From: a bacterium
Lineage (GTDB): Bacteria; SAR324; JACQKK01
NCBI GenBank assembly: GCA_965240465.1
Contig: OZ251219.1
Location: 256,001-320,000 of the forward strand
Direction of reading: 5' to 3'
Length of the DNA stretch: 64,000 nt
Shown one piece after another: positions 1 through 54,440 of the stretch. The position numbers were made by a program, and so were the translations under genes. Numbering within the stretch: position 1 is the stretch's first letter; each line of letters begins with the position of its first letter. Under the pieces are notes generated by a model. The model searched no databases. It was not told the DNA's origin and saw only the letters and a program-made list of their open reading frames with translations.

Positions 1-1
1 A

Positions 2-121
2 CTGGACGCCCTCTGCCAAACACGAACTATACACTGGAACTGGATCCCCGCCCACACAGGACACCCCGAAAACGAACTCTGCGACCAACTCGCCAACCTA
101 GCACGCCTTAAACTAAAATAA
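2..121 (+). CDS. rnhA: 3' end of ribonuclease HI (partial at the window edge; either the intact gene's end or another duplicated remnant)
   Basis: Hand translation LDALCQTRTIHWNWIPAHTGHPENELCDQLANLARLKLK* matches the RNase HI C-terminal motif (E. coli [20 protein letters not shown]); TAA at 119-121. Confidence 0.75.
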   Translation: MDALCQTRTIHWNWIPAHTGHPENELCDQLANLARLKLK

Positions 122-125
122 AAAA

Positions 126-150
126 TGGGGCAGATAATAAATCTGCCCCA
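126..150 (-). terminator. Intrinsic terminator hairpin downstream of the first lipoprotein gene
   Basis: TGGGGCAGAT-aataa-ATCTGCCCCA perfect 10-bp stem followed by a T run on the minus strand, 10 nt after the stop codon. Confidence 0.7.
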
Positions 151-159
151 ATACTCTAA

Positions 160-3100
160 CTACTGAACACCAATAACATCAACTTGGAGCTGATCACAAT
201 TGTTATTGTTATTGGCTACTTCCTCAGCATATCCACCACTACCATCACTACTAACACAAACTGTATAGTAATATGTCGTATCGTTTGCCACAGTTGGCAC
301 CGTAATACTCCCAGAGGTAAGCTCACGGTAGGCATCGGAGTTGCTCAAGTTGGCGGCGGCAACTGCAGCATCGGCGGAGGTATCTACATTAGTAGTAGTA
401 ACCGACGATATCTTCTTGGCACCATCATCAGCAGGAACAATGGCGGCACTATCCGTGGATCTATAATAGTCAAATGTTAGAGTACCTGGAGTACCTGAAT
501 CCCAATCTCCTATGTTCACAACCTTAAAGCTAAGTGTTATATCACTATTAGATTGAACATTGCCATCGGTGGGAGTAGCTAAAGCTAAACCAAACAGACT
601 TAGATCAGGGGTCTCATTGCCGGTGACACCCACATTCACCTTAATCTTACTGGTACAGTTGTTGTCGGGGTTTGAATCCGCAGTGCTACCAGAACCAGTA
701 CTTGTTACACAAGCGTAATAATAATATACGCCTGGAGGGCCTATCGCTGGAAAAGTCGTACCCTTAGCAGGAGTGGCCGAGCCAGAGGCCACTCCAGTCC
801 CAACCAGAGCATTTATAGCAATTTCCCCTACAGTTCCCGTTCCCACGGCTTCTGCAGCAACGGGGCTGGTGATACTATTATTGCTAGCAGAGCGGTAATA
901 TTTCAGTGTTTCCGCCGCCGAGGATGCACTCCCAACGTTATACACCCTAGCAGAGAAGGTAACATTCTGATCCAGGATGAGATCTTGGGTACCGGACAAT
1001 TTACCCATTTCTAGATCAGGGGCGGGGAGTACGATCACCTTAACCTTCTTGCTACAGTTGTTGGTGAGGTTTGAATCCGCAGTGCTACCAGAACCAGTAC
1101 TTGTTACACAAGCGTAATAATAATACACGCCACCATTCGCTGAAAAAGACTTATCACCAACGGCTACTCCATTCGCATCCAAAGCAGATATAGTAACTGT
1201 TGCTCCTGTAACAATTTCTCCAGCAACGGGGCTGGTGATAACATTACTGTTCTCAGAGAGGTAATATTGCAATGTTTCCTCCACTGAGGATACACCCCCA
1301 ATGTTCTCCACCTGCACCGAGAATTCAACATTTTCATTAGAGTCCGAGTCAACAGTGTCGTCAGCAATTGTCAATTCACCCATTTGTGGATCGGGGGGGG
1401 TATTCACGATCACCTCAACTATATTGCTGCAGTTGGTGGCGGTTCCCGTATTAGTTACACAAGCGAAGTAATAATATGTGTTAGCAGGACCTGCCACTGT
1501 CAAAGTACTAGTATCAGAGTATGTATTTGTAGCTGTACCACTCTCAGTCAAAGCAGATACGGTAACACTTTCAATGGAGGTTAGTGATTGAGGGTTATTA
1601 CTGGCAGTAGTAGAGCGGTAATAACTCAGTGTTTCCGACCCCGAGGCTATATTCCCTCCGTTAGTCACAATCACCGCAAAAGCAGCATCGCCACCCACGG
1701 TAATAGAAGCTGTGTCACTACTACCACCGACCGTCAATGTACCCAAGGTTAGATTAGCTAGGGCCGCGGTGACGCCCACCGCAACTGTATTGCTGCAGTT
1801 GGTGGCGGTTCCCGTATTAGTTACACAAGCGTAGTAATAATATGTGCCAGCATGGCCTGTCACTGTCAAAGTACTAGCACCAGAGTATGTATTTGTACTA
1901 GCATCTGTACCACTCTTAGTCAAAGCAGATACGGTAACATCTTTAATGGAGGTTAGTGATTGAGGGTCATTACTGTCAGTAGTAGAGCGGTAATAACTCA
2001 GTGTTTCCTCCACCGAGGCTATATTCCCTTCGTTAGTCACAGTCACCGCAAAAGCAGCATCTCCATCCACGGCAATAGAAGCTGTGTCACTACCACCGAC
2101 CGTCAATGTACCCAAGGTTAGATCAGCTGCCTGGGCCGCGATGACGCCCACCCCAACTGTATTGCTGCAGTCGACGGTGCCTCCCGTATTAGTTACACAA
2201 GCGTAGTAATAATAGACGTCATTAACAGTACCTAACACTGAAAAAGTCTTAGTATTAGAGAATGTATTTGTACTAGCAATTGTACCATTCTTAGTCAAAG
2301 TATTAACAGTAACCACCCCCGTAATAGCGGTGCCATCAGTAGTATTATTGTTAGCATTGCTGTAATAGGTTAGTGTTTCAGATTCCGAGTCTGCATTCCC
2401 TTTGTTAGTCACAGTCACCGTAAAATCAGCACTGCCACCCTCGGCAACAGTAGCAACTATGCTACTATTATTGACCGTCAATGTACCCAAGGTTAGATTA
2501 GCTGCCTGGACCGCGGAGACGGTCACCGCAACTGTATTGCTGCAGTTGGTGGCGGTTCCCGTACTTACACAAGCGTAGTAATAATAGGTGGTGCCAACAG
2601 TACCTGTTACTGTCAAAGTACTAGCATCAGAGTATGTATTTGTAGTTGTACCACTATCAGTCAAAACATCTACGGTAACACTTTTAATGGAGGTAGCTAG
2701 TGGTTGAGGGTCACTACTGTTACTATCAGAGCGGTAATACTTCAGTGTTTCCGACCCCGAGGCTATATTCCCTTCGTTAGTCACAATCACCGCAAAATCA
2801 GCAGTGCCACCCACGGTAATAGAAGCTGTGCTGCCACCACCGACCGTCAATGTACCCAAGGTTAGATTAGCTGCCTGGACCGCGGAGACGGTCACCGCAA
2901 CTGTATTGCTGCAGTTGGTGGCGGTTCCCGTACTTACACAAGCGTAGTAATAATAGGTGGTGCCAACAGTACCTGTCACTGTCAAAGTACTAGTATCAGA
3001 GTATGTATTTGTACTAGAACTTGTACCACTCTCAGTCAAAGTACTAACTTTAACCGTCCCCGTGGCGGTGCCACCAGTAGTACTATTGCTAGCATTGCTG

Positions 3101-5193
3101 TAATAGGTTAGTGTCTCAGATGCCGAGGCTATATTCCCTTCGTTAGTCACAGTCACCGTAAAATCAGCACTGCCACCCACGGTAACAGCAGCTGTGTTGA
3201 CCGTCAATGCACCCAAGGTTAGATTAGCTGCCTGGGCCGCGGTGACTTCCACCGCAACTGTATTGCTACAGTTGGTGGTGCTTCCCGTGCTTACACAAGC
3301 GAAGTAATAATAGGTGGTGCCAACAGTACCTGTCACTGTCAAAGTACTAGCATCAGAGTATGTATTTGTAGTTGTACCACTATCAGTCAAAACATCTACG
3401 GTAACACTTTTAATGGAGGTAGCTAGTGGTTGAGGGTCACTACTGTTACTATCAGAGCGGTAATACTTCAGTGTTTCCGACCCCGAGGCTATATTCCCTT
3501 CGTTAGTCACAATCACCGCAAAATCAGCAGTGCCACCCACGGTAATAGAAGCTGTGCTGCCACCACCGACCGTCAATGTACCCAAGGTTAGATTAGCTGC
3601 CTGGGGGGGGGCCGCGGTGACGGACACCGCAACTGTATTGCTACAGTTGGTGGTGCTTCCCGTACTTACACAAGCGTAGTAATAATAGGTGGTGCCAACA
3701 GTACCTGTCACTGTCAAAGTACTAGTATCAGAGTATGTATTTGTACTAGAACTTGTACCACTCTCAGTCAAAGTACTAACTTTAACCGTCCCCGTGGCGG
3801 TGCCACCAGTAGTACTATTGCTAGCATTGCTGTAATAGGTTAGTGTCTCAGATGCCGAGGCTATATTCCCTTCGTTAGTCACAATCACCGCAAAATCAGC
3901 AGTGCCACCCACGGTAATAGAAGCTGTGCTGCCACCACCGACCGTCAATGTACCCAAGGTTAGATTAGCTGCCTGGGGGGGGGCCGCGGTGACGGACACC
4001 GCAACTGTATTGCTACAGTTGGTGGTGCTTCCCGTACTTACACAAGCGTAGTAATAATAGGTGGTGCCAACAGTACCTGTCACTGTCAAAGTACTAGTAT
4101 CAGAGTATGTATTTGTACTAGAACTTGTACCACTCTCAGTCAAAGTACTAACTTTAACCGTCCCCGTGGCGGTGCCACCAGTAGTACTATTGCTAGCATT
4201 GCTGTAATAGGTTAGTGTCTCAGATGCCGAGGCTATATTCCCTTCGTTAGTCACAGTCACCGCAAAAGTAGCATCTTCACCCACGGTAACAGAAGCTGTG
4301 CTGCCACCACCGACCGTCAATGCACCCAAGGTTAGATTAGATTGGGCCGCGGTGACGGACACCGCAACTCGCGAGCTGCAGTCGTTGTTGGAGTTTGTAT
4401 CTTCAGCACTATCAGTACCATTACTTGTCACACAAGCGTAATAATAATATGTGCCAGCAGTGTTTGGCACTTGAACCGTCGCATCATGAGATTCTTCACC
4501 AACTCCTGCAGTCAAAACACCTATATCATCATCCTTACCCGCAATGGCGGTGCCATCAGCAGTCATACTGCTAGCACGGTAATAGGTTAGTGTCTCAGCT
4601 ACCGAGTCTGCACTCCCAACATTCCTCACTCTCACTGAAAGCACAACATCTCCACCCGTGACAGCAGTATCTGGATTAACTGCAAATTGATCCACTCCTA
4701 GATCCGCTTTAGCAGTTTCGGTAAAGATAACTTCCTTGCCAGCGGTACAATCATTGCTGGTGTCGGTGTCATCGGTCGTTACTACACAAGCTCCGTAGAA
4801 AACTGACTTTGCAGTGTCTTCGGTAGCGGTGGTACTTAATTCATCGGACAATGCTCCTCCATCCAAACTAGTGATAGAGGTGTCTGTTAGTACTTCATCA
4901 TCGGAGGTAATAGTTTCGTCTGCAGACTTGTAAAAGGTTACAGTTACGGCTCCTGAAGTGGCTGCTGTCCCTTGATTTTTCACCTTCAAGGAAAGTGTTA
5001 CGTTAGTGTCTTTAACAACGCTGGTGGGACTGACAGCAAAATCATCTGGTATTAAATCAACCCCAGTAGTTTTTGTGCTGGAGGAGTTACTGCCACCACC
5101 ACCACAGGAGGTTAAGAAGAGTGCCGGCAGGACAGTTAACAAAAAGGCAGGCAGAGCTGCGAATTTTAAGAAAGATTGGATGTTTTTATTCAT
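160..5193 (-). CDS. Large surface lipoprotein with 13 CARDB/Ig-like modules
   Basis: Signal peptide with lipobox LTSC then poly-Gly; 13 modules of about 120 aa, each with DL/NL...V.N.G...YY...YYYACV...NC. Confidence 0.85.
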   Translation of the reverse strand: MNKNIQSFLKFAALPAFLLTVLPALFLTSCGGGGSNSSSTKTTGVDLIPDDFAVSPTSVVKDTNVTLSLKVKNQGTAATSGAVTVTFYKSADETITSDDEVLTDTSITSLDGGALSDELSTTATEDTAKSVFYGACVVTTDDTDTSNDCTAGKEVIFTETAKADLGVDQFAVNPDTAVTGGDVVLSVRVRNVGSADSVAETLTYYRASSMTADGTAIAGKDDDIGVLTAGVGEESHDATVQVPNTAGTYYYYACVTSNGTDSAEDTNSNNDCSSRVAVSVTAAQSNLTLGALTVGGGSTASVTVGEDATFAVTVTNEGNIASASETLTYYSNASNSTTGGTATGTVKVSTLTESGTSSSTNTYSDTSTLTVTGTVGTTYYYYACVSTGSTTNCSNTVAVSVTAAPPQAANLTLGTLTVGGGSTASITVGGTADFAVIVTNEGNIASASETLTYYSNASNSTTGGTATGTVKVSTLTESGTSSSTNTYSDTSTLTVTGTVGTTYYYYACVSTGSTTNCSNTVAVSVTAAPPQAANLTLGTLTVGGGSTASITVGGTADFAVIVTNEGNIASGSETLKYYRSDSNSSDPQPLATSIKSVTVDVLTDSGTTTNTYSDASTLTVTGTVGTTYYYFACVSTGSTTNCSNTVAVEVTAAQAANLTLGALTVNTAAVTVGGSADFTVTVTNEGNIASASETLTYYSNASNSTTGGTATGTVKVSTLTESGTSSSTNTYSDTSTLTVTGTVGTTYYYYACVSTGTATNCSNTVAVTVSAVQAANLTLGTLTVGGGSTASITVGGTADFAVIVTNEGNIASGSETLKYYRSDSNSSDPQPLATSIKSVTVDVLTDSGTTTNTYSDASTLTVTGTVGTTYYYYACVSTGTATNCSNTVAVTVSAVQAANLTLGTLTVNNSSIVATVAEGGSADFTVTVTNKGNADSESETLTYYSNANNNTTDGTAITGVVTVNTLTKNGTIASTNTFSNTKTFSVLGTVNDVYYYYACVTNTGGTVDCSNTVGVGVIAAQAADLTLGTLTVGGSDTASIAVDGDAAFAVTVTNEGNIASVEETLSYYRSTTDSNDPQSLTSIKDVTVSALTKSGTDASTNTYSGASTLTVTGHAGTYYYYACVTNTGTATNCSNTVAVGVTAALANLTLGTLTVGGSSDTASITVGGDAAFAVIVTNGGNIASGSETLSYYRSTTASNNPQSLTSIESVTVSALTESGTATNTYSDTSTLTVAGPANTYYYFACVTNTGTATNCSNIVEVIVNTPPDPQMGELTIADDTVDSDSNENVEFSVQVENIGGVSSVEETLQYYLSENSNVITSPVAGEIVTGATVTISALDANGVAVGDKSFSANGGVYYYYACVTSTGSGSTADSNLTNNCSKKVKVIVLPAPDLEMGKLSGTQDLILDQNVTFSARVYNVGSASSAAETLKYYRSASNNSITSPVAAEAVGTGTVGEIAINALVGTGVASGSATPAKGTTFPAIGPPGVYYYYACVTSTGSGSTADSNPDNNCTSKIKVNVGVTGNETPDLSLFGLALATPTDGNVQSNSDITLSFKVVNIGDWDSGTPGTLTFDYYRSTDSAAIVPADDGAKKISSVTTTNVDTSADAAVAAANLSNSDAYRELTSGSITVPTVANDTTYYYTVCVSSDGSGGYAEEVANNNNNCDQLQVDVIGVQ

Positions 5194-5243
5194 TTTTTCC
5201 TCATTAGAAGATTGTCAGCATATTCTACTCATAACCAAGTCGC

Positions 5244-5272
5244 AGGTTATCACACCGTTTTGAGGAATGCAA
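5244..5272 (-). promoter_or_regulatory. Putative sigma70 promoter of the lipoprotein gene; homologous sequence lies upstream of all five paralogues
   Basis: Minus strand TTGCAT-17 nt-TAACCT; the copy upstream of the fifth paralogue reads TTGCAT-17 nt-TAGCAT; GAGG Shine-Dalgarno before the ATG. Confidence 0.45.
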
Positions 5273-5302
5273 CAAAGAAGCTGCTAGGAATGAAGAAACC
5301 AA

Positions 5303-5422
5303 CTGGACGCCCTCTGCCAAACACGAACAATACACTGGAACTGGATCCCCGCCCACACAGGACACCCCGAAAACGAACTCTGCGACCAACTCGCCAACCA
5401 AGCACGCCTTAAACTAAAATAA
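5303..5422 (+). pseudogene. rnhA: rnhA 3' fragment, copy 2
   Basis: LDALCQTRTIHWNWIPAHTGHPENELCDQLANQARLKLK*; in-frame TGA at 5291-5293 just upstream and no start codon. Confidence 0.8.
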
Positions 5423-5426
5423 AAAA

Positions 5427-5499
5427 TGGGGCAGATAATAAATCTGCCCCAAAGAAAACCACTTAAAAAAAGAAGCGGGGCAGATTTATTATCTGCCCC
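5427..5499. terminator. Pair of GGGGCAGAT-N5-ATCTGCCCC hairpins in opposite orientation
   Basis: Hairpins at 5427-5451 (loop aataa) and 5477-5499 (loop ttatt). Confidence 0.65.
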
Positions 5500-5509
5500 C
5501 ATACTCTAA

Positions 5510-8500
5510 CTACTGAATGACATCAACTCGGAGCTGATCACAATTGTTATTGTTATTGGCTGCTTCCTCATTAGCGTCACTAACACAAACTGTATAGTAA
5601 TATGTCGTATCGGATGCCACATTTTGCACCGTAATATTCCCAGAGGTAACCTTACGGAGTCTCCCATTCTTATCCAAGCTGGCATCTGCAGCGGCGGCGG
5701 TGGTATCTGTATTAGCAGTAGTAACCGACGATATCTTCTTGCCAACATCATCAGCAGGAACAATGGCGGTGCTATCCTCAGAGACATAATAGTCAAATGT
5801 TATATTACCTGAATCCACATCTCCTATGTTCACAACCCCAAAGCTAAGTGTTATATCACCACTAGATTGAACATTGCCATTGGTGGGAGTAGCTAAAGCT
5901 AAACCAAACACACTTAGATCAGGGGTACCATTGCCGGTGACACCCACATTCACCTTAAGCTTACTGGTACAGTTGTCGTCGGGGTTTGAATCTGCGGTGC
6001 TACCAGAACCAGTTGTTACACAAGCGTAATAATAATATACGCCTGTATTGCCTGTTATTGAAAATTTCTTATCAGCATCGGCTAAACCACCAGCAGCCAA
6101 AACATCTACAGTAACTACTTGTGCTGGCACAATGGCTTCTGAAGCAACGGGGCTGGTGATATTATTATTGCTAGTAGAGCGGTAATATGTCAGTGTTCCC
6201 GCCGCCGAGTCTGCACTCCCAGCGTTCCTCACACCACTCCCCACATAGAAGGTAGCCTCAGCATTCGAGTTCTGATATTGGTTATTGACTGAAAATCCAT
6301 CCCCCCCCCTTACTACTAGATCAGGGGCGGGGAGTACTATCACCTTAACCTTATTGCTACAGTTGTTGGTGAGGTCTGAATCTGCGGTGCTACCAGAACC
6401 AGTACTTGTTAAACAAGCGTAATAATAATATACGCCACCATTCGCTGAAAAAGAATTATCACCAGAGGCTATTCCATCCGCACCCAAAGCAGATATAGCA
6501 ACTGTTTCTCCTGCAACAATTTCTGTCCCATCGGGGCTGGTGATAACATTACTGTTCTCAGAGCGGTAATATTGCAATGTTTCCGCCACTGAGGATACAC
6601 CCCCAATGTTCTCCACCTGCACCGAGAATTGAACTTTTTCATTAGAGTCCGAGTCAACAGTGTCGTCAGCAATTGTCAATTCACCCATTTGTGGATCTGG
6701 GGTGGTGGTGGCGGCGGCATTCACGGTCACCGCAACTGTATTGCTACAGTTGGTGGCGGTTCCCGTACTTACACAAGCGAAGTAATAATAGGTGGTGCCA
6801 ACAGTACCTGTCACTGTCAAAGTACTACCACCAGGGGCTGTACCATTCACATCCAAAGCAGATATGGCAACATCTTTAATGGAGGTAGCTAGTGGTTGAG
6901 GGTTATTACTGTCAGTAGTAGAGCGGTAATACTTCAGTGTTTCTGACACCGAGGCTGCATTCCCGCTGTTAGTCACAGTCACCGCAAAAGTAGCATCTCC
7001 ATCCACGGTAACAGAAGCTGTGCTGCCACCACCGACCGTCAATGTACCCAAGGTTAGATTAGCTGCCTGGATCGCGGAGACGGTCACCGCAACTGTATTG
7101 CTGCAGTTGGTGGCGGTTCCCGTACTTACACAAGCGTAGTAATAATAGGTGGTGCCAACAGTACCTGTCACTGTCAAAGTACTAGTATCAGAGAATGTAT
7201 TTGTACTAGCAATTGTACCACTCTTAGTCAAAGCAGATACGATAACATCTTTAATGGAGGTAGCTAGTGGTTGAGGGTTATTACTGTCAGTAGTAGAGCG
7301 ATAATACTTCAGTGTTTCTGACACCGAGGCTGCAGTCCCGCTGTTAGTCACAGTCACCGCAAAATCAACATTGCCACCCTCGGTAATAGAAGCTGTGCTG
7401 CCACCACCGACCGTCAATGTACCCAAGGTTAGATTAGCTGCCAGGGCCGCGGTGACGCCCACCGCAACTGTATTGCTGCAGTTGGTGGCGGTTCCCGTAC
7501 TTACACAAGCGTAGTAATAATAGATCTCATTAGCAGTACCTAACACTGAAAAAGTCTTAGTATTAGAGAATGTATTTGTACTAGCAATTGTACCATTCTT
7601 AGTCAAAGCATTAACAGTAACCACCCCCGTAATAGCGGTGCCACCAGTAGTATTATTGTTAGTATTGCTGTAATAGGTTAGTGTTTCAGATTCCGAGTCT
7701 GCATTCCCTTTGTTAGTCACAGTCACCGTAAAATCAGCACTGCCACCCTCGGTAACAGCAATAGCTGTGCTACTATCATTGACCTTCAATGTACCCAAGG
7801 TTAGATTAGCTGCAGCTGCCTGGGCCGCGGTGACGGTCACCGCAACTGTATTGCTACAGTTGGTGGTGCTTCCCGTACTTACACAAGCGAAGTAATAATA
7901 GGTGGTGCCAACAGTACCTGTCACTGTCAAAGTACTACCACCAGGGGCTGTACCATTCACATCCAAAGCAGATATGGCAACATCTTCAATGGAGGTTAGT
8001 GATTGAGGGTCATTATTGCCATCAGTAGTAGAGCGGTAATACTTCAGTGTTTCTGACACCGAGGCTGCATTCCCGCTGTTAGTCACAGTCACCGCAAAAG
8101 TAGCATCTCCATCCACGGTAACAGAAGCTGTGCTGCCACCACCGACCGTCAATGCACCCAAGGTTAGATTAGCTGCCTGGGAGGGGGGCGCGGTGACTTC
8201 CACCGCAACTCGCGAGCTGCAGTCGTTGTTGGAGTTTGTATCTTCAGCACTACCAGTACCACTACTTGTCACACAAGCGTAATAATAATATGTGCCAGCA
8301 GTGTTTGGCACTTGAACCGTCGCATCATCAGAGAATGTATTTGCATTAGGATCTGTACCACTCAAAACACCTACATCAGCATCCTTACCCGCAATGGCGG
8401 TGCCAGCAACAGCAATATCGCTAGTATCAGCGCGGTAATAGGTTAGTGTCTCAGCTGCCGAGTCTGCACTCCCACTATTCCTCACTATCACCGAAAGCAC

Positions 8501-8707
8501 AACCTCACCACTCGGGGCAATAGTACTTGGATTAACTGCAAATTGATCCACTCCTAGATCCGCTTTAGCAGTTTTTGTGCCGGAGGAGTTACTGCCGCCG
8601 CCGCCGCCGCCACCACCACAGGAGGTTAAGAAGAGTGCCGGCAGGACAGTTAACAAAAAGGCAGGCAGAGCTGCGAATTTTAAGAAAGATTGGATGTTTT
8701 TATTCAT
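5510..8707 (-). CDS. CARDB/Ig-like repeat lipoprotein, paralogue 2 (8 modules)
   Basis: Same signal peptide and lipobox as 160..5193; modules shared near-identically with paralogue 1. Confidence 0.85.
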   Translation of the reverse strand: MNKNIQSFLKFAALPAFLLTVLPALFLTSCGGGGGGGGSNSSGTKTAKADLGVDQFAVNPSTIAPSGEVVLSVIVRNSGSADSAAETLTYYRADTSDIAVAGTAIAGKDADVGVLSGTDPNANTFSDDATVQVPNTAGTYYYYACVTSSGTGSAEDTNSNNDCSSRVAVEVTAPPSQAANLTLGALTVGGGSTASVTVDGDATFAVTVTNSGNAASVSETLKYYRSTTDGNNDPQSLTSIEDVAISALDVNGTAPGGSTLTVTGTVGTTYYYFACVSTGSTTNCSNTVAVTVTAAQAAAANLTLGTLKVNDSSTAIAVTEGGSADFTVTVTNKGNADSESETLTYYSNTNNNTTGGTAITGVVTVNALTKNGTIASTNTFSNTKTFSVLGTANEIYYYYACVSTGTATNCSNTVAVGVTAALAANLTLGTLTVGGGSTASITEGGNVDFAVTVTNSGTAASVSETLKYYRSTTDSNNPQPLATSIKDVIVSALTKSGTIASTNTFSDTSTLTVTGTVGTTYYYYACVSTGTATNCSNTVAVTVSAIQAANLTLGTLTVGGGSTASVTVDGDATFAVTVTNSGNAASVSETLKYYRSTTDSNNPQPLATSIKDVAISALDVNGTAPGGSTLTVTGTVGTTYYYFACVSTGTATNCSNTVAVTVNAAATTTPDPQMGELTIADDTVDSDSNEKVQFSVQVENIGGVSSVAETLQYYRSENSNVITSPDGTEIVAGETVAISALGADGIASGDNSFSANGGVYYYYACLTSTGSGSTADSDLTNNCSNKVKVIVLPAPDLVVRGGDGFSVNNQYQNSNAEATFYVGSGVRNAGSADSAAGTLTYYRSTSNNNITSPVASEAIVPAQVVTVDVLAAGGLADADKKFSITGNTGVYYYYACVTTGSGSTADSNPDDNCTSKLKVNVGVTGNGTPDLSVFGLALATPTNGNVQSSGDITLSFGVVNIGDVDSGNITFDYYVSEDSTAIVPADDVGKKISSVTTANTDTTAAAADASLDKNGRLRKVTSGNITVQNVASDTTYYYTVCVSDANEEAANNNNNCDQLRVDVIQ

Positions 8708-8816
8708 TTTTTCCTCATTAGAAGATTGTCAGCATATTTTACTCATAACCAAGTTACAGGTTATCACACCGTTTTGAGGAATGCAACAAAGAAGCTGCTA
8801 GGAATGAAGAAACCAA

Positions 8817-8936
8817 CTGGACGCCCTCTGCCAAACACGAACAATACACTGGAACTGGATCCCCGCCCACACAGGACACCCCGAAAACGAACTCTGCGAC
8901 CAACTCGCCAACCAAGCACGCCTTAAACTAAAATAA
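8817..8936 (+). pseudogene. rnhA: rnhA 3' fragment, copy 3
   Basis: Same sequence as 5303..5422. Confidence 0.8.
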
Positions 8937-9026
8937 AAAATGGGGCAGACGATAAATCTGCCCCAATACTCTAACTACTGAACACCAATTGGTGGGAGTG
9001 CTAAACCTAAATCAAACACCTCTAGA

Positions 9027-11762
9027 TCAGGGAGAGCTGATATTCACCATAACCTTATTGCTACAGTTGTTGTCGGGGTTTGAATCTGCAGTGATACCAG
9101 AACTAGTACTTGTTACACAAACGTAATAATAATATACGCCTGCAGGGCCTGTCGCTGTAAAAGACTTACCACCATCGTAGTAATTACCCGCAGTCAATTG
9201 AGCACCTACAGAAAATACTTTTCGTGGCGAAAAGGCTTCTAAAGCAACGGGGCTGGTGATAGCATCACTGTTATCAGAGCGGTAGTACTCAAATTTTTCC
9301 ACCGCCGAGAGTGCACTCCCAATGTTATTCACCCTCACAGAGAATAAAATACTGCCACCCATGTTGAGATCTTGGGGACTAGCCGCCAAGACACCCATTG
9401 TTAGATCGGGGGCGGGGAGTACGATCACCTTAACCTTATTGCTACAGTTGTTGGTGAGGTTTGAATCTGCGGTGCTACCAGAACCAGTACTTGTTAAACA
9501 AGCGTAATAATAATATACGCCGCCATTCGCTGAAAAAGACTTATCACCAGAGGCTATTCCATCCGCACCCAAAGCAGGTATAGTAACTGTTTTTCCTATA
9601 ACAATTTCTGTCCCATCGGGGCTGGTGATAACATTACTGTTCTCAGAGCGGTAATATTGCAATGTTTCCTCCACTGAGGATACACCCCCAATGTTCTTCA
9701 CCTCCACCGAGAATACAACATTCTCATCAAGGATGCCTACCACGGAAATAGTGTCGTCAGCAATTGTCAATTCACCCATTTGTAGATCTGGGGTGGCGGG
9801 GGTGGCATTCACGGTCACCGCAACTGTATTGCTACAGTTGACGGTGGTTCCCGTATTAGTTACACAAGCGTAGTAATAATACATGCCAGCAGTGTTTGAC
9901 ACTTGAACCATCTTAGTATTAGGGAATGTATTTGTACTAGCAATTGTACCACTCTCAGTCAAAGCAGTAACATCAACCGTCCCCGTAATAGCGGTGCCAC
10001 CAGTAGTATTATTGTTAGTATTGCTGTAATAGGTTAGTATTTCATCCACCGAGGTTGCAGTTCCGCTGTTAGTCACAGTCACCGCAAAATCAACATTGCC
10101 ACCCTCGGTAATAGAAGCTGTGCTGCCATTATTGACCGTCAATGTACCCAAGGTTAGATTAGCTGCAGCTGCCTGGGCCGCGGTGACGGACACCGCAACC
10201 TTATTGCTGCAGTTGACGGGGGGGATGATTCCCGTATTATTTACACAAGCGTAGTAATGATATGTGGTGCCAACATCACCTGACACTATAATACCCTCAC
10301 TACTCTTGAATCCTACATTCTTACCCACAGCATTTATAGAAAATGTTTGTTCTGGCGAAAGGATTTCGTTGGTGTCGGGGCTGGTGATAGCAGCACTGCT
10401 AGCAGAGCGGTAATATTTCAGTTCTTCCACCGCTGAGAGTATATTCCCTCTGTTAGTCACAGTCACCGCAAAAGTAGCATCGCTACCTACGACAACATCA
10501 ACTGTAGTACTACTACCATTGACCGTCAATGTACCCATTTGTAGATTGGGGGCATTCACGGTCACCTCAACTGTATCGCTGCAGTCGACGGTGGCTACCG
10601 TATTAGTTACACAAGCGAAGTAATAATAGATGCCAGCAGGGCCTATCACTGTCAAAGTACTAGGATAATCTTTATCACCATTACCACCCAAAGGAGCTAC
10701 GGTAACACTACTTCCAATTTTAGTGGAGGTTGATGATTGAGGGTTATTACTGTCAGTAGTAGAGCGGTAATAACTCAGTGCTTCCTCCACCGAGTCTACA
10801 TCCCCTTCGTTAGACACACTCGCCACAAAATCAACCATACCCGCGGTAACAGTAGCTGGGTCTCCACTACCATTGACCGTAAGGGACACTTGTAGACTGG
10901 CGGGGTCGGAGGCATTCACGGTCACCTCAACTGTATCGCTGCAGTCGACGGTGCCTCCCGTATTAGTTACACAAGCGTAATAATAATATGTGCCAGCAGT
11001 GCCTGACGCTTGAACCGTCGCATCATAAGATTGTGTAGCACCCATAGTCAAAACGTCTACAGTAGCATCCTTACCTATAATGGCGGTGCCATTAACAGTA
11101 CTATTGGTAGTATTGCTGTAATAGGTTAGTGTCTCAGCTACCGAGTCTGCACTCCCACTATTCCTCACCATCACTGAAAGCACAACCTCACCACTCGTGG
11201 CAATAGTACTTGGATTAACTGCAAATTGATCCACTCCTAGATCCGCTTTAGCAGTTTCGGTAAAGGTAACTTGCTTGCCAGCGGTACAATCATTGCCGAG
11301 GTTGGTGTCATCGGTCGTTTTTACACAAGCTCCGTAGAAAACTGACTTTGCAGTGCCTTCGGTAGCGGTGGTACTTAACTCATCGGACAATTCTCCTCCA
11401 TCCAAACTAGCGATAGAGGTGTCCCCTGTTAGTACATCATCATCGGAGGTAATAGTTTTGTCTATGGACTTGTAAAAGGTTACAGTTACGGCTCCTGAAG
11501 TAGCTGCTGTCCCTTGATTTTTCACCTTCAAGGAAAGTGTTACGTCAGTGCCTTTAACAACGCTGGTGAGACTGACAGCAAAATCATCTGGTATTAAATC
11601 AATTCCAGTAATTTTTGTGCCGGAGGAGTTACTGTCACCATCGCCGCCGCCGCCATCATCACCGCCACCACCACAGGATGTTAAGAAGAGTGCCGGTAGG
11701 ACGGTTAACAAAAAGGCAGGCAGAGCTGCGAATTTTAAGAAAGATTGGATGTTTTTATTCAT
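9027..11762 (-). CDS. CARDB/Ig-like repeat lipoprotein, paralogue 3 (7 modules, terminal module deleted)
   Basis: Same signal peptide and lipobox; ends NISSP* with an out-of-frame remnant of the final module at 8975-9031. Confidence 0.85.
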   Translation of the reverse strand: MNKNIQSFLKFAALPAFLLTVLPALFLTSCGGGGDDGGGGDGDSNSSGTKITGIDLIPDDFAVSLTSVVKGTDVTLSLKVKNQGTAATSGAVTVTFYKSIDKTITSDDDVLTGDTSIASLDGGELSDELSTTATEGTAKSVFYGACVKTTDDTNLGNDCTAGKQVTFTETAKADLGVDQFAVNPSTIATSGEVVLSVMVRNSGSADSVAETLTYYSNTTNSTVNGTAIIGKDATVDVLTMGATQSYDATVQASGTAGTYYYYACVTNTGGTVDCSDTVEVTVNASDPASLQVSLTVNGSGDPATVTAGMVDFVASVSNEGDVDSVEEALSYYRSTTDSNNPQSSTSTKIGSSVTVAPLGGNGDKDYPSTLTVIGPAGIYYYFACVTNTVATVDCSDTVEVTVNAPNLQMGTLTVNGSSTTVDVVVGSDATFAVTVTNRGNILSAVEELKYYRSASSAAITSPDTNEILSPEQTFSINAVGKNVGFKSSEGIIVSGDVGTTYHYYACVNNTGIIPPVNCSNKVAVSVTAAQAAAANLTLGTLTVNNGSTASITEGGNVDFAVTVTNSGTATSVDEILTYYSNTNNNTTGGTAITGTVDVTALTESGTIASTNTFPNTKMVQVSNTAGMYYYYACVTNTGTTVNCSNTVAVTVNATPATPDLQMGELTIADDTISVVGILDENVVFSVEVKNIGGVSSVEETLQYYRSENSNVITSPDGTEIVIGKTVTIPALGADGIASGDKSFSANGGVYYYYACLTSTGSGSTADSNLTNNCSNKVKVIVLPAPDLTMGVLAASPQDLNMGGSILFSVRVNNIGSALSAVEKFEYYRSDNSDAITSPVALEAFSPRKVFSVGAQLTAGNYYDGGKSFTATGPAGVYYYYVCVTSTSSGITADSNPDNNCSNKVMVNISSP

Positions 11763-11869
11763 TTTTTCCTCATTAGAAGATTGTCAGCATATTTTACTCA
11801 TAACCAAGTCACAGGTTATCACACTGTTTTGAGGAATGCAAAAGAAGCTGCTAGGAATGAAGCAACCAA

Positions 11870-11980
11870 CTGGACGCCCTCTGCCAAACACGAACAATAC
11901 ACTGGAACTGGATCCCCGCCCACCCTCAAAACGAACTCTGCGACCAACTCGCCAACCAAGCACGCCTTAAACTAAAACAA
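11870..11980 (+). pseudogene. rnhA: rnhA 3' fragment, copy 4
   Basis: Reads WNWIPAHPQNELCDQLANQARLKLKQ: 9-nt in-frame deletion and stop codon lost. Confidence 0.75.
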
Positions 11981-12067
11981 AAAATGGGGCAGACAATAAA
12001 TCTGCCCCAAAGAAAACCACTTAAAGAAAGGAGTGGGGCAGACAATAAATCTGCCCCCATACTCTAA

Positions 12068-15000
12068 CTACTGAACAGCAATTCGGTCATAAATACAATG
12101 TTCGTCACTACCATCAGAGGATTTACTAATACAAGCCCCATAATAATACTCTCCCGAAACAAGACCGCTTTGGGTTTTAGTACCAGTCATGGTGTCAGTA
12201 AGGGAACTACCACTATCACCATTCGCAGCTACTGAACTAATACCTTTTGCAGATTGTTGTGGTACGTCACTAGTATTAAGGACATCATTATCTGATCCAT
12301 AATATCTTAAAGTAAGTGCTGCACTTGCTGCATCACCCAGATTTTTAATAACCACCCTCATTTTGATATTATCCCCATTACTCACAGAACCTTCTCCGTA
12401 TGTGACAACAGTCTCTACGCCACTACTATCAACCTTGTACACTACCAGGTCATGCAGTTTAATATCTACTCCGCTGGTAGCATTAACAACAACCGCTTGA
12501 CTGACACAATTGTTGCCTGTATTGGCACTGTCCTCACCACCTCCCGAAATACAAACTCCATAATATAATGTGCCTTTATCTCGTTGGGTTAAAAAATCGG
12601 ATTTTAGTACATCCTTCTCACTACCAACAGCCAATCCACTACTAAAAGAAGTTGTACCAACAACTTCGTCATCAGCAAAGCTTGTATCAGCTGACATGTA
12701 ATATTTTACAGTGATTACCTCACCACTTGCTAAAACAGCGTTACTGCTGTTGTTTCTAACCTTCACGCTAATTTGGATACTATCCCCAGCTAGGAGAGTG
12801 CCTCCATCTGCAATCACGGCGTTGCCCGAGTTTATGGAATTTCTCAATACTAAACCAGTCGGTATCAAATCTAGACTCTGGACAACAACAGGGGCAATGA
12901 CAGGAACTGCGAGCTGATCACAATTGTTAGCTTTAGCGGTTGCTGCCTCATTAAGAGTGGCACTCACACAAACTGTATAGTAATATGTTGCATTGGATGT
13001 CACAGTTTCCACCGTAATTGTTCCAGAGATAACACTACGTTCGCCCGCACTGACGGTCAAGTTGGCGACATCTGCGGCAACAGTGGCAGTATCAGGAACC
13101 GATATCTTCTTGCTACTATCATTAGCAGGATTAATGGCGGTGCTATCCGTGGATCTATAATAGTCAAATGTTAGAGCACCTGAACCCCCAGTAGTTCCTA
13201 TGTTTTGAACCTTAAAGCCAAGTTTTATATCACTACCAGATTTAACATCGCCACTGCTGGGAGTATTTAAAGCTAAATCAAACACCTTTAGATCAAGGGT
13301 CGCACTACCGACGACACTCACATTCACCCTAACCTTATTGCTACAGTCGTTGGCAGAGTTTGAATCTACAGCGACACCAGTACCAGTGCTTGTTATACAA
13401 GCATAATAATACCACGTGCCTTTAGGGGTTGTCGCTGGAAAAGTCTCACCACCAGGGGCTGTTCCACCCGCAATCAAAACATCTACATCAACTACTTGTT
13501 CTGGCGAAAGGGCTTCGCTGGTGACGGAGCTGGTGACGGGGCTGTCGAGATTACCACCAGTAGTAGAGCGGTAATATATCAAGTCTTCCTCCGCCGAACT
13601 TACAGTCCCTTCGTTAGTCACGGTCACCGAGAATTCAATATTGTCATTCACCGAAACATCGCTGTCAGTGACTGTCAATGTACCCACTCCTAGATCGGGA
13701 GCGGGGGCTCCCACGATCACCGAAACTGTATTGCTACAGTTGGGGGTAGATCCCGTATTACTTACACAAGCGAAGTAATAATAGGTGGTGCCAACAGTAC
13801 CTTCCACTATCAAACCTCTACTATCAGAGATTGTACGAGACGCATCCAAAGCAGCTATGTTAACACTTTCAATGTCGGTTAGTGATTGAGGGTCATTACT
13901 GTTAGTAGTAGAGCTGTAATATTTCAGTGTTTCCGCACCCGATATTGCAGTCCCGCTGTTAGTCACAGTCACCGCAAAAGCAGCACTTTTACCCTTGGCA
14001 ACAGTAGCTGTGCTACTACCCTTGACCGTCAATGTATCACCCAAGGTTAGATTGGGTGTCTGGGTGCCAGAGGTCATCACGGTCAACTCAGCTCGCGAGC
14101 TGCAGTCGTTGCTGGAGTTTGCATCTGCAGTGCTACCAGTACCAGTACTTGTCACACAAGCGTAATAATAATATGTGCTAGCAGTGCCTGCTTGAACCAT
14201 CGCAGTATAAGATTGTGTAGCACCCATAGTCAAAACGTCTACAGTAGCATCCTTACCTGTAATGGCGGTGCCATCAGCAGTCATACTGCTAGCGAGGTAA
14301 TAGGTTAGTGTTTCAGCTGCCGAAGCTGCACTCCCACTATTCTTCACTCTCACTGAAAGCACAACCTCACCACTCGGGGCAATAGTACTTGGAGCAACTG
14401 CAAATCGATCCAATGCTAGATCCGCGCTAGCAGAATCGGTAAAGATAACTTCCGTGCCAGCGGTACAATCATTGCTGGCGTCGGTGTCATCGGTCGTTAC
14501 TACACAAGCTCCGTAGTAAACTGAACCTGCAGCACTTTCGGTGGCCATGGTACTTGACTCAGCAGACAATGCTCCCATACCCAAACCAGTGAGAGCGAAA
14601 CCATTTCCTACTTCAGTATCGGAGGAGTCAATAGTTTCGTCTGTAGATTTGTAAAAGGTTAGAATTGCGGCTGTTGAAGCAGCTGTCCCTTGATTTTTCA
14701 CCTTCGAGGAAAGTGTTACGTTATCGTCTTTAACAACACTGGTAGCACTGACAGCAAAACCATATGGTATTAAATCAACCCCCGCAGTTTCGGTAAAGGT
14801 AACTTTCGTGCCAGCGGTACAATCATTGCTGGTGTCGGTGTCATCGGTCGTTTCTACACAAGCTCCGTAGAAAACTGGACCTGCAGCGTTTTCGGTGGCC
14901 ATGGTACTTAACTCAGCAGACAATGTTTCTCCATCCAAACTAAGGATAGTGGCGTCCCTTCCTAATACAGTATCATCGGAGGGGGTAATAGTTCCGTCTG

Positions 15001-15283
15001 TAGACTTGTAAAAGGTTACAGTCACGGCTCCTGAAGCCTCTGTCCCTTGATTTTTCACCTTCAAGGAAAGTTTTACTTCAGTGCCTTTAACAACACTGGT
15101 AGCACTGACAGCAAAATTATCTGGTGTTAAATCAATTCCAGCAACAGGTCCAGTAGTTTCTGTGCCGGAAGATTTATCTTCATCACCGCCACCACAGGAG
15201 GTTAAGAAGAGTCCCGATAGGACGGTTAACAAAAAGGCAGGCAGAGCTGCGAACTTTAAGAAAGATCGGATGTTTTTATTCAT
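12068..15283 (-). CDS. CARDB/Ig-like repeat lipoprotein, paralogue 4 (8 modules, last two divergent)
   Basis: Signal peptide MNKNIRSFLKFAALP...LTSC; repeated YYGACV/YYYACV modules. Confidence 0.85.
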   Translation of the reverse strand: MNKNIRSFLKFAALPAFLLTVLSGLFLTSCGGGDEDKSSGTETTGPVAGIDLTPDNFAVSATSVVKGTEVKLSLKVKNQGTEASGAVTVTFYKSTDGTITPSDDTVLGRDATILSLDGETLSAELSTMATENAAGPVFYGACVETTDDTDTSNDCTAGTKVTFTETAGVDLIPYGFAVSATSVVKDDNVTLSSKVKNQGTAASTAAILTFYKSTDETIDSSDTEVGNGFALTGLGMGALSAESSTMATESAAGSVYYGACVVTTDDTDASNDCTAGTEVIFTDSASADLALDRFAVAPSTIAPSGEVVLSVRVKNSGSAASAAETLTYYLASSMTADGTAITGKDATVDVLTMGATQSYTAMVQAGTASTYYYYACVTSTGTGSTADANSSNDCSSRAELTVMTSGTQTPNLTLGDTLTVKGSSTATVAKGKSAAFAVTVTNSGTAISGAETLKYYSSTTNSNDPQSLTDIESVNIAALDASRTISDSRGLIVEGTVGTTYYYFACVSNTGSTPNCSNTVSVIVGAPAPDLGVGTLTVTDSDVSVNDNIEFSVTVTNEGTVSSAEEDLIYYRSTTGGNLDSPVTSSVTSEALSPEQVVDVDVLIAGGTAPGGETFPATTPKGTWYYYACITSTGTGVAVDSNSANDCSNKVRVNVSVVGSATLDLKVFDLALNTPSSGDVKSGSDIKLGFKVQNIGTTGGSGALTFDYYRSTDSTAINPANDSSKKISVPDTATVAADVANLTVSAGERSVISGTITVETVTSNATYYYTVCVSATLNEAATAKANNCDQLAVPVIAPVVVQSLDLIPTGLVLRNSINSGNAVIADGGTLLAGDSIQISVKVRNNSSNAVLASGEVITVKYYMSADTSFADDEVVGTTSFSSGLAVGSEKDVLKSDFLTQRDKGTLYYGVCISGGGEDSANTGNNCVSQAVVVNATSGVDIKLHDLVVYKVDSSGVETVVTYGEGSVSNGDNIKMRVVIKNLGDAASAALTLRYYGSDNDVLNTSDVPQQSAKGISSVAANGDSGSSLTDTMTGTKTQSGLVSGEYYYGACISKSSDGSDEHCIYDRIAVQ

Positions 15284-15391
15284 TTTTTCTCATTAGAAAT
15301 TGTTGATATATTGTACTCACAACTAAGCCGCAGGGTATCACACTGTTTTGAGGAATACAACAACAAAAACTGCTAGGAATGAAGAAACCAG

Positions 15392-15510
15392 CTGGACGCC
15401 CTCTGCAAAAACACGAACAATACACTGGCACTGGATCCCTGCCCACATCGGACACCCTTAAAACGAACTCTGCGACCAACTCGCCAACCAAGCACGCCTC
15501 AAACTAAAAG
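15392..15510 (+). pseudogene. rnhA: rnhA 3' fragment, copy 5 (most degenerate)
   Basis: +1 frameshift after LDALC, then WHWIPAHIGHP*NELCDQLANQARLKLK with an internal TAA. Confidence 0.7.
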
Positions 15511-15552
15511 CCCATCCCCCAAAATAAACGGGACAGATGAACATCTGCCCCA

Positions 15553-17178
15553 TTAATTTAGACGCTGCTGAATATCAATTATTATATGCTTACAATTGTC
15601 CCCTATTTTGGCAGTATCTTCACCACCTCCCGAAAGACAAGCTCTATAATTGGTTGTGCCAAGCGTTACACCAATAGAAGCAGTTTGGGCTTTTTCAGCA
15701 CTGGTGCGATTAACTCTATCATTACCCCCACCATTTGCACTCAATCCAGTAATAGTCTTTGCTGGCTCAAAAAGGGCGCCACCACTGCCATCAGGACCCG
15801 AGTTTCTACGAAATTCTAAAGTAACATCAGATGTTGGAGCAGTATTACCCAGGCTTTTAATACTCACATATATTCTGAGAGTATCGCCTATGTAGATAAC
15901 GGCTGAGGGTGCAAGGGGAGTGGCGATTCCATTCAAGACCCTGTATACCACTAACTCCTCCAGTAACAAATCTATTCCGTCGGGAGCATTAGCAACAGTA
16001 ATTTCTTTACTAAGGCATTTAGTGCCTGTAGTGCCATCATTAGCTAGTTCAACACAAGCTCCAAAATAAAACGTGCCAATATCTATTTGGTTGAATTCAA
16101 CACTGGTAATATTCTCAACAAGACCTTGTTGCCCAGCCAATGAGTCGTTGATAACTTTGCTTTCAAGAAGAACATCGTCTATGCCATCAACAGCTGATGC
16201 GGATCTATAAAATTTTACAGTGGCTTTACCAGCTGCTACATCACCATCACCACTGTTTCCAACATTTATAAGCATGTGGATTTTGCCTTCATAGTTGATA
16301 CTTTGGTCTGTATCCTCACTGGAGCCATCGTATAATCTTAAATTATCCAGTGACAAATCTGGATTATTGGTAAAGGTAACTTCCGTGCCAGCGGTACAAT
16401 TATTGCTGGTGTCGGGTTCACCGATCGTTACTACACAAGCTCCGTAGTAAACTGGACCTGCAGTGCTTTCGGTGGCCATGACACTCAATTCATCAGACAA
16501 TGCTCCTCCATCCAAACTAGTGAGAGCCTTATTTCCTACTGCAGTATCAGCGGAGGTAATAGTTCCGTCTGCAGACTTGTAAAAGGTTACAGTTACGGTT
16601 CCTGAATCAGCTGTCCCTTGATTTCTCACCTTCAAGGAAAGTTTTACGTTACTGCTTTTAACAACACTGGTAGCACTGACAGCAAAACCATATGGTATTA
16701 AATCAACCCCCGCAGTTTCGGTAAAGGTAACTTTCGTGCCAGCGGTACAATCATTGTTGGCGTTGGTGTCATCGGTCGTTACTACACAAGCTCCGTAGTA
16801 AACTGGACCTGCAGTGCTTTCGGTGGTGGTAGTACTTAACTCAGCAGACAATGCTCCTCCATCCAAACTAGCGATAGAGGTGTCCACTTCTACTTCATCA
16901 TCGGAGGAGCTAATAGTTCCGTCTATAGACTTGTAAAAGGTTACAGTTACGGTTCCTGAATCATCTGTCCCTTGATTTCTCACCTTCAAGGAAAGTCTTA
17001 CTTCAGTGTCTTTGACAACACTGGTAGCACTGACAGCAAAATCATCCGGTGTTAAATCAACGCCGGAGGATTTCTTTTCATCACCGCCACAAGAGATTAA
17101 GAAGAGTGCTGGCAGGACGGTTAACAAAAAGGCAGGCAGAGCCACGAATTTCAAGAAAGATTTAACGTTCTTATTCAT
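15553..17178 (-). CDS. CARDB/Ig-like repeat lipoprotein, paralogue 5 (4 modules)
   Basis: Start moved to ATG at 17178 (MNKNVKSFLKF) by homology with the other paralogues; lipobox LISC. Confidence 0.85.
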   Translation of the reverse strand: MNKNVKSFLKFVALPAFLLTVLPALFLISCGGDEKKSSGVDLTPDDFAVSATSVVKDTEVRLSLKVRNQGTDDSGTVTVTFYKSIDGTISSSDDEVEVDTSIASLDGGALSAELSTTTTESTAGPVYYGACVVTTDDTNANNDCTAGTKVTFTETAGVDLIPYGFAVSATSVVKSSNVKLSLKVRNQGTADSGTVTVTFYKSADGTITSADTAVGNKALTSLDGGALSDELSVMATESTAGPVYYGACVVTIGEPDTSNNCTAGTEVTFTNNPDLSLDNLRLYDGSSEDTDQSINYEGKIHMLINVGNSGDGDVAAGKATVKFYRSASAVDGIDDVLLESKVINDSLAGQQGLVENITSVEFNQIDIGTFYFGACVELANDGTTGTKCLSKEITVANAPDGIDLLLEELVVYRVLNGIATPLAPSAVIYIGDTLRIYVSIKSLGNTAPTSDVTLEFRRNSGPDGSGGALFEPAKTITGLSANGGGNDRVNRTSAEKAQTASIGVTLGTTNYRACLSGGGEDTAKIGDNCKHIIIDIQQRLN

Positions 17179-17376
17179 TTTCTCCCATTTGGAAAATTGC
17201 CGATGCTGTACACGGCAGAGCTGTATGCTATCACACTGTTTTAAGGGATGCAATGCAAGAAAATCGGCAAATTACAAAAAATAATTTGCAAAGTTGGTTA
17301 TGTGGGTATACTTTGGGATAGGTAGTGATCGTTCTCATTACAGAATGAAGTTTTTCTAGTTTTGGTTTAAGAAGTC

Positions 17377-54393: not shown

Positions 54394-54412
54394 ACCACCA
54401 CCACCCAAAAAC

Positions 54413-54440
54413 TTGACACGGAGTTAAATCGTGGTACCAT
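54413..54440 (+). promoter_or_regulatory. Putative sigma70 promoter of the first Asp-rich lipoprotein gene
   Basis: TTGACA-16 nt-TACCAT with extended -10 TG. Confidence 0.5.

Follow-up and report, generated by a model that had tools for sequence, protein, structure and literature searches.

We analysed a 64,000-nt stretch of a bacterial genome (hereafter the window; G000:C1:256001-320000, from a genome consisting of a single contig of 1.6 Mb with 45% G+C), in which five genes coding for lipoproteins with CARDB repeats (L1-L5) lie head to tail, all five on the minus strand, between the RNase HI gene rnhA on the left and iscS on the right. Each two consecutive lipoprotein genes are separated by a dead copy of the 3' end of rnhA (T1-T4). 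These repeated RNase HI pieces are very probably the join-point scars of a tandem segmental duplication whose later growth reused one and the same join by homologous exchange. The array has the structure of such a duplication: its head-to-tail units share one identical novel junction, the boundary gene is intact at the left end only, and the terminal unit, which ends in the spacer between L5 and iscS, is free of scars. Taken as a whole, that is scars, a reused join between promoter spacer and tail (P|T), and repeated involvement of the live tail, this is the explanation in which we place high confidence.

Dead rnhA tails between the lipoprotein genes

A search of the whole genome with the RNase H profile PF00075 (cut-off 25.8 bits) returned five matches. 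The only full one (G000:255696-256100, 149.4 bits) is the rnhA gene that forms the left boundary of the array and starts 572 nt left of the window. Its protein matches Pfam RNase_H at 2e-43 over profile positions 4-138 of 141 and can be aligned with a solved RNase HI chain over residues 4-140 of the latter (E 3.4e-44). The other four matches each fall on a dead tail and span profile positions 97/100-139 of 141. Three of these four exceed the cut-off, at 5288-5404 (38.1 bits, E 1.7e-9), 8802-8918 (38.0 bits, E 1.9e-9) and 15375-15494 (30.4 bits, E 4e-7), and the remaining one, at 11855-11962 (22.7 bits, E 9.8e-5), lies under it.

The motif CTGGACGCCCTCTGC begins exactly at positions 2, 5303, 8817, 11870 and 15392, and the tail DNA is 91-98% identical to that of the live tail (T0). 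The latter translates to LDALCQTRTIHWNWIPAHTGHPENELCDQLANLARLKLK, ending ...ANLARLKLK, with a leucine where the dead copies have a glutamine. T1 and T2 translate to ...ANQARLKLK*, with an in-frame stop three codons upstream (E*RNQ) and neither ATG, GTG nor TTG inside. In T3, 9 nt (CACACAGGA) are missing, the deletion being flanked by CAC repeats, and the former stop reads CAA. T4 carries a 1-nt insertion after TGC and an in-frame TAA at a former Gln/Glu codon, and its diverged end has no terminal stop.

A first-pass annotation made from the letters of the window had read the five spacers as the C-terminus of RNase HI, which the profile search bears out. The peptide that it quoted is that of the dead copies and is wrong for T0 at the Leu/Gln position. 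Its account of T1 and T2 as intact but start-less, of a 9-nt deletion and a lost stop in T3, and of a frameshift and an internal stop in T4 is accurate, and the full rnhA for which it had suggested looking left of the window is indeed there, as the only one in the genome.

None of the fragments has an open reading frame (ORF) with a start codon. They start at the residue aligned to position ~107 of the 155-residue solved chain and cover ~107-145. The catalytic carboxylates of RNase HI are D10, E48, D70 and D134, and H124 also has a role (E. coli numbering); as the fragments begin at residue ~107, they retain no more than the counterparts of H124 and D134, and they lack both a complete RNase HI fold and the full set of catalytic carboxylates. 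Plus-strand ORFs that run over P and T in another frame (5176-5412, 8690-8926 and 11745-11975) were set aside as by-products of near-identical DNA. In the spacer between L5 and iscS (17179-17376) PF00075 found no rnhA piece, and only the promoter part is present, as the first-pass annotation had stated for the region upstream of L5.

The live rnhA has a Pro/Thr-rich N-terminal extension of ~85 aa ahead of its RNase H domain (G000:C1:255429-255700; L001:1234-1500). The rnhA open frame of G001, the sole genome of the same genus, has 166 aa only, and other members of the family have 144-303 aa.

A single join point, reiterated in each unit

Read on the plus strand, each unit consists of a tail (111-120 nt), a hairpin, a minus-strand lipoprotein gene as its sole gene, and an upstream spacer of ~109 nt (P). 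The unit had been proposed to comprise rnhA tail, terminator, gene and promoter, and the alignment of the junctions (alignment A1) as well as the predicted terminators agree with this (Table 1; junctions J0-J4 are numbered like their tails). Homology to rnhA begins at an identical ACCAACTGGACGCC in four of four junctions (alignment A1), and this common start points to one join point that was reiterated.

The hairpin has the form GGGGCAGA-N7-TCTGCCCC, and on the minus strand it is a good predicted intrinsic terminator, with 9-10 pairs followed by TTTTTTATTT. Because the U-tract is the complement of window positions 116-125, the terminator of the lipoprotein gene and the end of rnhA physically overlap. 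The genome holds six exact copies of the hairpin, all at the array locus, which rules it out as a genome-wide REP-like element. J1 and J3 have a second hairpin, derived from an insertion of ~49 nt (5427-5499 and 11985-12057). At J1 the 7-nt loop of this second hairpin is inverted (TAATAAA vs TTTATTA), a small flip of the sequence enclosed by the stem; at J3 the two loops are oriented alike. An Rfam scan of positions 1-18000 at E<=1 gave no RNA family beyond a sub-threshold match to mir-4524 on the double hairpin at 5418-5510 (31.4 bits, gathering score 68), which we rejected as chance.

Table 1. Coordinates of the features of the array in the window
Feature	Position	Strand	Remarks
T0, live rnhA tail	2..121	+	final 39 codons and stop of the sole intact rnhA; whole gene G000:C1:255429-256121, 230 aa
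T1, dead rnhA tail	5303..5422	+	frame intact, no start codon
T2, dead rnhA tail	8817..8936	+	identical to T1 (0/120)
T3, dead rnhA tail	11870..11980	+	9-nt deletion, stop TAA>CAA; ancestral CCT CAA kept
T4, dead rnhA tail, probably oldest	15392..15510	+	1-nt insertion, internal TAA, end lost; ancestral CAC and CCT kept
P1, promoter-bearing spacer upstream of L1	5194..5302	-	ends at P|T join (A1)
P2	8708..8816		equivalent of P1 (A1)
P3	11763..11869		equivalent of P1 (A1)
P4	15284..15391		equivalent of P1 (A1)
P5	17179..17376		equivalent of P1, without tail (A1)
Predicted terminator hairpin of L1	126..150	-	U-tract 116-125 covers rnhA stop 119-121
Equivalent hairpins, J1	5427..5451 + 5477..5499
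Equivalent hairpin, J2	8941..8965
Equivalent hairpins, J3	11985..12009 + 12035..12057
Equivalent hairpin, J4	15527..15554
L1, CARDB-repeat lipoprotein	160..5193	-	1677 aa
L2, CARDB-repeat lipoprotein	5510..8707	-	1065 aa
L3, CARDB-repeat lipoprotein	9027..11762	-	911 aa; lacks last domain
L4, CARDB-repeat lipoprotein	12068..15283	-	1071 aa
L5, CARDB-repeat lipoprotein	15553..17178	-	541 aa from ATG (MNKNVKSF); most diverged copy, iscS-proximal
Relic of L1-type gene end	8966..8989	-	last codons and stop; 24 nt, downstream of shortened L3
iscS, right array boundary	17377..18591	+	Pfam Aminotran_5 2.2e-86

Nested tail states and the order of the copies

The tails were aligned with the G001 sequence as outgroup (alignment A3), and all 105 rooted trees were scored by parsimony. 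At column 38, G001 and T4 have C and T0-T3 have A; at columns 67-68, G001 and T3 have TC, T4 has TT and T0-T2 have CG; at column 99, G001 and T1-T4 have A and T0 alone has T, which is also private to T0 at column 28. No site conflicts with the ladder T4 | T3 | T1=T2 | live gene, and the three shortest of the 105 trees (36 steps) are all of the form ((T0,T1,T2),T3),T4, whereas grouping the fragments as one clade takes 39 steps. A comparison of the fragment tree with array position, which the first-pass annotation had proposed, is thus in favour of its model. In terms of codons, the live rnhA changed from CCT CAA (Pro-Gln, as in G001) to CCC GAA (Pro-Glu), a site where Glu is the family consensus (10 of 11 relatives) and Gln is found in G001 alone. 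A later change, from Gln to Leu near the C-terminus, led to a residue seen in none of 11 relatives, seven of which have Gln. These nested states imply that the live gene was sampled at at least three different times.

A positional gradient is seen in three segments. Relative to T0, T1 and T2 each differ at 2/120 positions, T3 at 5/111 plus one indel, and T4 at 11/118 plus one indel, so that the substitutions rise along the array (2, 2, 5, 11), as expected in the earlier annotation. The promoter spacer P1 differs from P2, P3, P4 and P5 at 3/109, 4/107, 15/107 and 35/103 positions, and the first 99 nt of the L1 coding sequence differ from those of L2, L3, L4 and L5 at 1, 4, 7 and 13 positions. 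Over the N-terminal 170 codons, synonymous divergence (dS) is 0.08 for L1-L3, 0.13 for L3-L4, 0.15 for L4-L5, 0.22 for L1-L4 and 0.32 for L1-L5. Since rnhA has no counterpart to the P spacers and the 5' ends of the genes, this gradient is better explained by age, or by exchange among adjacent units, than by conversion from rnhA on its own. P5 is 28-35% different from P1-P4, and with such divergence the ancestral right breakpoint is not placeable to the base, nor is microhomology at the founding join resolvable.

From these data we infer the following order of events. A CARDB-repeat lipoprotein gene, convergent with rnhA, would have come into the short spacer between rnhA and iscS. A founding duplication, whose breakpoints lay at rnhA codon ~190 on the left and immediately upstream of the promoter of the lipoprotein gene on the right, would have yielded the arrangement rnhA-L-P|T-L-P-iscS. 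All later growth would have occurred at the reused P|T join by RecA-type homologous unequal exchange, the reuse of an identical join arguing for homologous exchange rather than for fresh illegitimate events. The live tail would have joined in at at least two later times, either by crossing over unequally with a dead tail (T0 x T(k)) or by gene conversion. Successive tails would in this way have frozen successive states of the live gene, in the order T4, T3, T1=T2 and present-day rnhA, and would have remained untranslated and decayed with age. It is probable that the live tail was involved on two or more occasions later than the founding event; that this came about through unequal crossovers adding proximal units, rather than through conversion, we hold to be an even call. 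Growth at the rnhA-proximal end, which the first-pass annotation had put forward, is supported by the nested states, with the reservation that gene conversion by the live tail would give the same pattern.

The genome possesses recA, and a stretch of 120 nt at 98% identity is above the length that RecA requires. A self-comparison of the genome returned 1053 local direct-repeat high-scoring segment pairs (HSPs) of >=150 nt and <=20 kb apart, at many loci. The idea that the tails supply homology for further expansion and contraction of the array is plausible, and the reuse of an identical junction points to it indirectly, but the repeats of the gene bodies, which run to kilobases, provide much more of it.

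The rnhA-iscS neighbourhood in relatives

rnhA is present in 36 of the 41 genomes searched, and extra matches to its tail occur only in the genome of the window (G000), bar one weak second match of 22 aa in G029. In G001, whose iscS is 79% identical to that of the window, rnhA lies ~200 nt from iscS with no gene between. Comparison of this interval among relatives, suggested in the first-pass annotation, shows iscS at <=1.5 kb downstream of rnhA in 6 of 11 loci, and in five of these six (L008, L009, L010, L014 and L015) the gap holds an ORF starting MLKLSKKIDYGLILL or similar that is presumably Rrf2/IscR-like. The two small genomes G000 and G001 seem to be without this gene, which is found in larger relatives. 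In 80 more distant iscS loci, rnhA occurs in the 3-kb flank twice and a homologue of L5 never; the closest named relative of the window iscS (74% identity) carries the label SAR324.

Homologues of L5 are found in two of the 41 genomes, G000 and G001, and in the latter elsewhere on the chromosome. None of the relatives searched has a single lipoprotein gene between rnhA and iscS, and G001 has zero there. The G001 arrangement thus points to the array as a lineage-specific insertion into a conserved rnhA-(iscR)-iscS neighbourhood that was later amplified; alternatively, the array may have been lost from G001. The ancestral locus envisaged earlier, in which a single lipoprotein gene beside iscS was convergent with rnhA, is retained as an implied stage, but the older state would be rnhA-iscS without a lipoprotein gene, as in G001. 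A 31-nt pattern across the P|T join had no match in metagenome contigs and none in genome contigs, and a 30-nt tail pattern had none in metagenome contigs, the window's own genome possibly being left out of these sets.

The iscS-proximal part of the G001 spacer aligns with positions ~17278-17340 of the window (alignment A2). This block, AAAAATAAYTTG...TTCTCAWT, is common to both genomes (L018:4110-4309 vs window 17278-17340) and includes a predicted iscS promoter, TTTGCA-16-TATACT, at 17285-17312. A motif upstream of the G001 iscS that resembles the promoter motif TATCACACYGTTTTGAGGAATGCAA was treated as chance, because it is not collinear with the homologous block (A2).

Mosaic flanks and gene conversion

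Several observations weigh against the history proposed above. The array is found in one genome only. The ladder is based on three grouping nucleotides at two sites; with so few data it has the weight of a parsimony argument, not that of a statistical test. The junction block 5092-5452 is ~99% identical to 8606-8966 (J1/J2, from gene codon ~35 to the end of the first hairpin), and this sharply bounded stretch of ~360 nt has the appearance of a conversion tract. In L1, L2 and L3 the C-terminal blocks have a dS of 0.17-0.19 (dN/dS about 1.0-1.3), a value possibly inflated, in a repeat protein, by exchange between non-orthologous repeats. At such a dS, a neutral tail of 120 nt would be expected to show ~18-20 differences, against 0 observed between T1 and T2 and 2 between T0 and T1. 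The junctions are therefore far younger than the gene bodies, which indicates that they were homogenised or replaced and that likeness between them is not necessarily a measure of age; gene conversion thus makes it harder to read birth order directly from them.

The alternation of flanks adds to this. The hairpins of J0-J4 are single, double, single, double and single, and the right flank of J2 is that of J0, while the right flank of J1 matches that of J3 (90.8% over 228 nt). Growth by one proximal unit at a time does not predict such alternation, which suggests that two units were duplicated together, when the live tail exchanged with a distal one, and that J1 was then homogenised with J2. 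The gene bodies, whose pairwise blocks are mosaic across all five, are too mosaic to confirm it. Moreover, the bodies of L1 and L2 (85.7% over 2.1 kb) are closer to each other than those of L1 and L3 (~80%), and the N-terminal order is the reverse.

At 8966-9042, the 24 nt past the J2 hairpin are identical to the end of L1 (Table 1), and homology then jumps ~440 nt deeper into L2, or ~670 nt deeper into L1. The signal peptides of L1-L3 are invariant at the protein level. The bodies of L1-L4 (160-15283) have a dN/dS of about 1.0-1.3, as expected for variable surface proteins or for relaxed constraint.

Alternative explanations

The most serious competitor starts from the same evidence of conversion. 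It proposes one founding junction, later units being copied through the gene bodies, and a ladder that reflects distance-dependent conversion, from the rnhA tail, which is under selection, into dead tails close by, and not birth order. The near identity of the tails (0/120 and 2/120) next to a gene-body dS of 0.17-0.19, the sharply bounded block shared by J1 and J2 and the mosaic flanks are all what it predicts. However, the P spacers and the gene 5' ends display the same gradient, though rnhA cannot convert them. Conversion among neighbouring units could yield this gradient too, and we consider the explanation weakened and rather unlikely.

In a different kind of process, genomic islands accrete in tandem at the 3' end of a target gene, leaving repeated 3'-end copies between the inserts, the oldest farthest from the live gene. 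By analogy, lipoprotein cassettes might have integrated site-specifically at the 3' end of rnhA, each supplying a new tail in place of the old one, with the displaced tails as att-like scars; the newest copy would then lie beside the live gene and the oldest tail farthest away, in agreement with the ladder. Unlike in island accretion, there is no integrase in or beside the units, and the inserts are paralogues of one another. The units hold a lipoprotein gene only, the flanking genes code for gcvP subunits, an ion channel, iscS, iscU, a DnaJ-domain protein and an Hsp70, and the hairpin is found nowhere else in the genome. The integrase profile PF00589 has two matches in the genome, the nearer ~36 kb away (serine recombinases and transposases were not searched). 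It is also doubtful that selection has kept the tails for a function, be it upstream regulation of the lipoprotein promoters, an antisense small RNA to rnhA or a small peptide. In favour of such a role, T1 does not differ from T2, and T4 (9/118 from T1) has diverged no further than the adjoining promoter spacer (15/107). Yet T3 and T4 have suffered a deletion, a frameshift and lost stops, no tail has a start codon, the sole Rfam match is the sub-threshold one on the double hairpin, the plus-strand ORF at 5176-5412 has no Pfam match and no equivalent at J4, and L5 does without any tail upstream. With no integrase, RNA family or usable ORF, both readings are unlikely: we regard a functional element as very improbable, mobile cassettes as highly improbable, and the tails as presumably functionless. 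The PF00589 match at window 53093-53599 (99.4 bits), which may be Xer-type, is unlinked to the array.

Finally, so repetitive a locus might be an artefact of repeat mis-assembly, a possibility that we consider negligible. The units vary in length and by 10-25% in sequence, and every tail carries changes of its own. Comparison of the region 4600-6100 with the runs X1 and X2 (one sample) and X3 gave short contigs that break at repeat branch points. Those of X1 and X2 reproduce the branch points, their loose ends at the tail start run into the real rnhA, and contigs with the L3-type join skip 430-495 nt on L2, a skip that matches the jump in homology described past the J2 hairpin; X1 and X2 may be the source sample, in which case this support is not independent. 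X3 gave no cover over 5263-5875.

Comparison with known systems

In the model of amplification at a join point, one novel join is made once and is then reiterated with each unit, the boundary gene remains intact at one end, and copy number changes by homologous, RecA-dependent unequal exchange. A tandem segmental duplication is expected to leave such a scar, a shortened boundary gene, at each of its joins. The array is a clean example of this known process, and no new mechanism is called for. Amplifications obtained in the laboratory consist of young, identical units; in contrast, the array is old, its units differ by 10-25%, and the remnants of the boundary gene form a dated series. With tandem duplications mediated by microhomology it shares ends that lie inside genes and the production of partial gene copies, but its units are 2-5 kb long and diverged, not short and identical.

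The closest described case is the lpl lipoprotein cluster of Staphylococcus aureus, where tandem paralogous lipoprotein genes have been diversified by repeated homologous recombination in a conserved central region inside each ORF (Tsuru & Kobayashi 2008, PMC2568036). The likeness is that in the array too a conserved segment recurs with each gene, the best-conserved part being the junction block (5' signal-peptide codons, promoter, tail and terminator). Unlike in lpl, a piece of rnhA is present at every junction, and the live boundary gene has probably been involved repeatedly; the abstract mentions no fragment of an unrelated neighbouring gene in the S. aureus cluster (PMC2568036). A literature search returned no paper describing repeated tails of a boundary gene in a bacterial lipoprotein array, the nearest being that on lpl (PMC2568036).

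The locus is an unusually legible record of the growth of a bacterial gene family, with its founding breakpoint preserved four times. Its main value lies in the dead tails, dated snapshots of a housekeeping gene that make up a conflict-free fossil series, and it also shows junctions evolving in concert while gene bodies diverge with a dN/dS of ~1. For annotation, the four RNase H matches should be labelled as relics of duplication and not as pseudogenes of independent rnhA copies. It is conceivable, if doubtful, that the array has co-opted the scar as a recombination anchor that renews itself, in which the live tail, under purifying selection, keeps exchanging with the dead copies. Were this so, a high-identity landing pad of ~120 nt plus terminator would always be kept at the proximal end of the array, whole surface-lipoprotein genes could be gained or dropped without breaking rnhA, and the locus would be a contingency locus for copy number and antigenic variation in a small, repeat-rich genome.

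The lipoproteins and their neighbourhood

CARDB (PF07705) is matched in all five lipoproteins, at 1.2e-13 to 1.7e-33. Their N-terminal signal peptides are near-identical and end in ...FLTSC (L1-L4) or ...FLISC (L5), followed by GG. L1-L5 are thus predicted CARDB-domain lipoproteins with a lipobox cysteine, which we assigned by reading the N-termini for the lipobox pattern. They are built of units of ~124 aa (372 nt), some of which, within L1, share 96-97% identity. The Gly-rich linker after the lipobox cysteine differs between paralogues (GGGG, GGGGGGGG and GGGGDDGGGGDGD; window ~5080-5100, 8590-8610 and 11640-11665). This variation arises via the length of GGC/GCC repeats, and the contigs show an insertion of 12 nt (GCC) where the L2 version is aligned to L1.

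To the left of the array comes rnhA and, farther left, the two gcvP subunits, and an ion channel is also among the flanking genes; on the right side are iscS, iscU, a DnaJ-domain protein and an Hsp70. Local direct repeats are packed very densely from window ~54000 to 64000 and farther on (G000 310-350 kb; up to 109 HSPs per 10-kb bin), and several more such clusters are found across the genome (790-810 kb, 1340-1360 kb).

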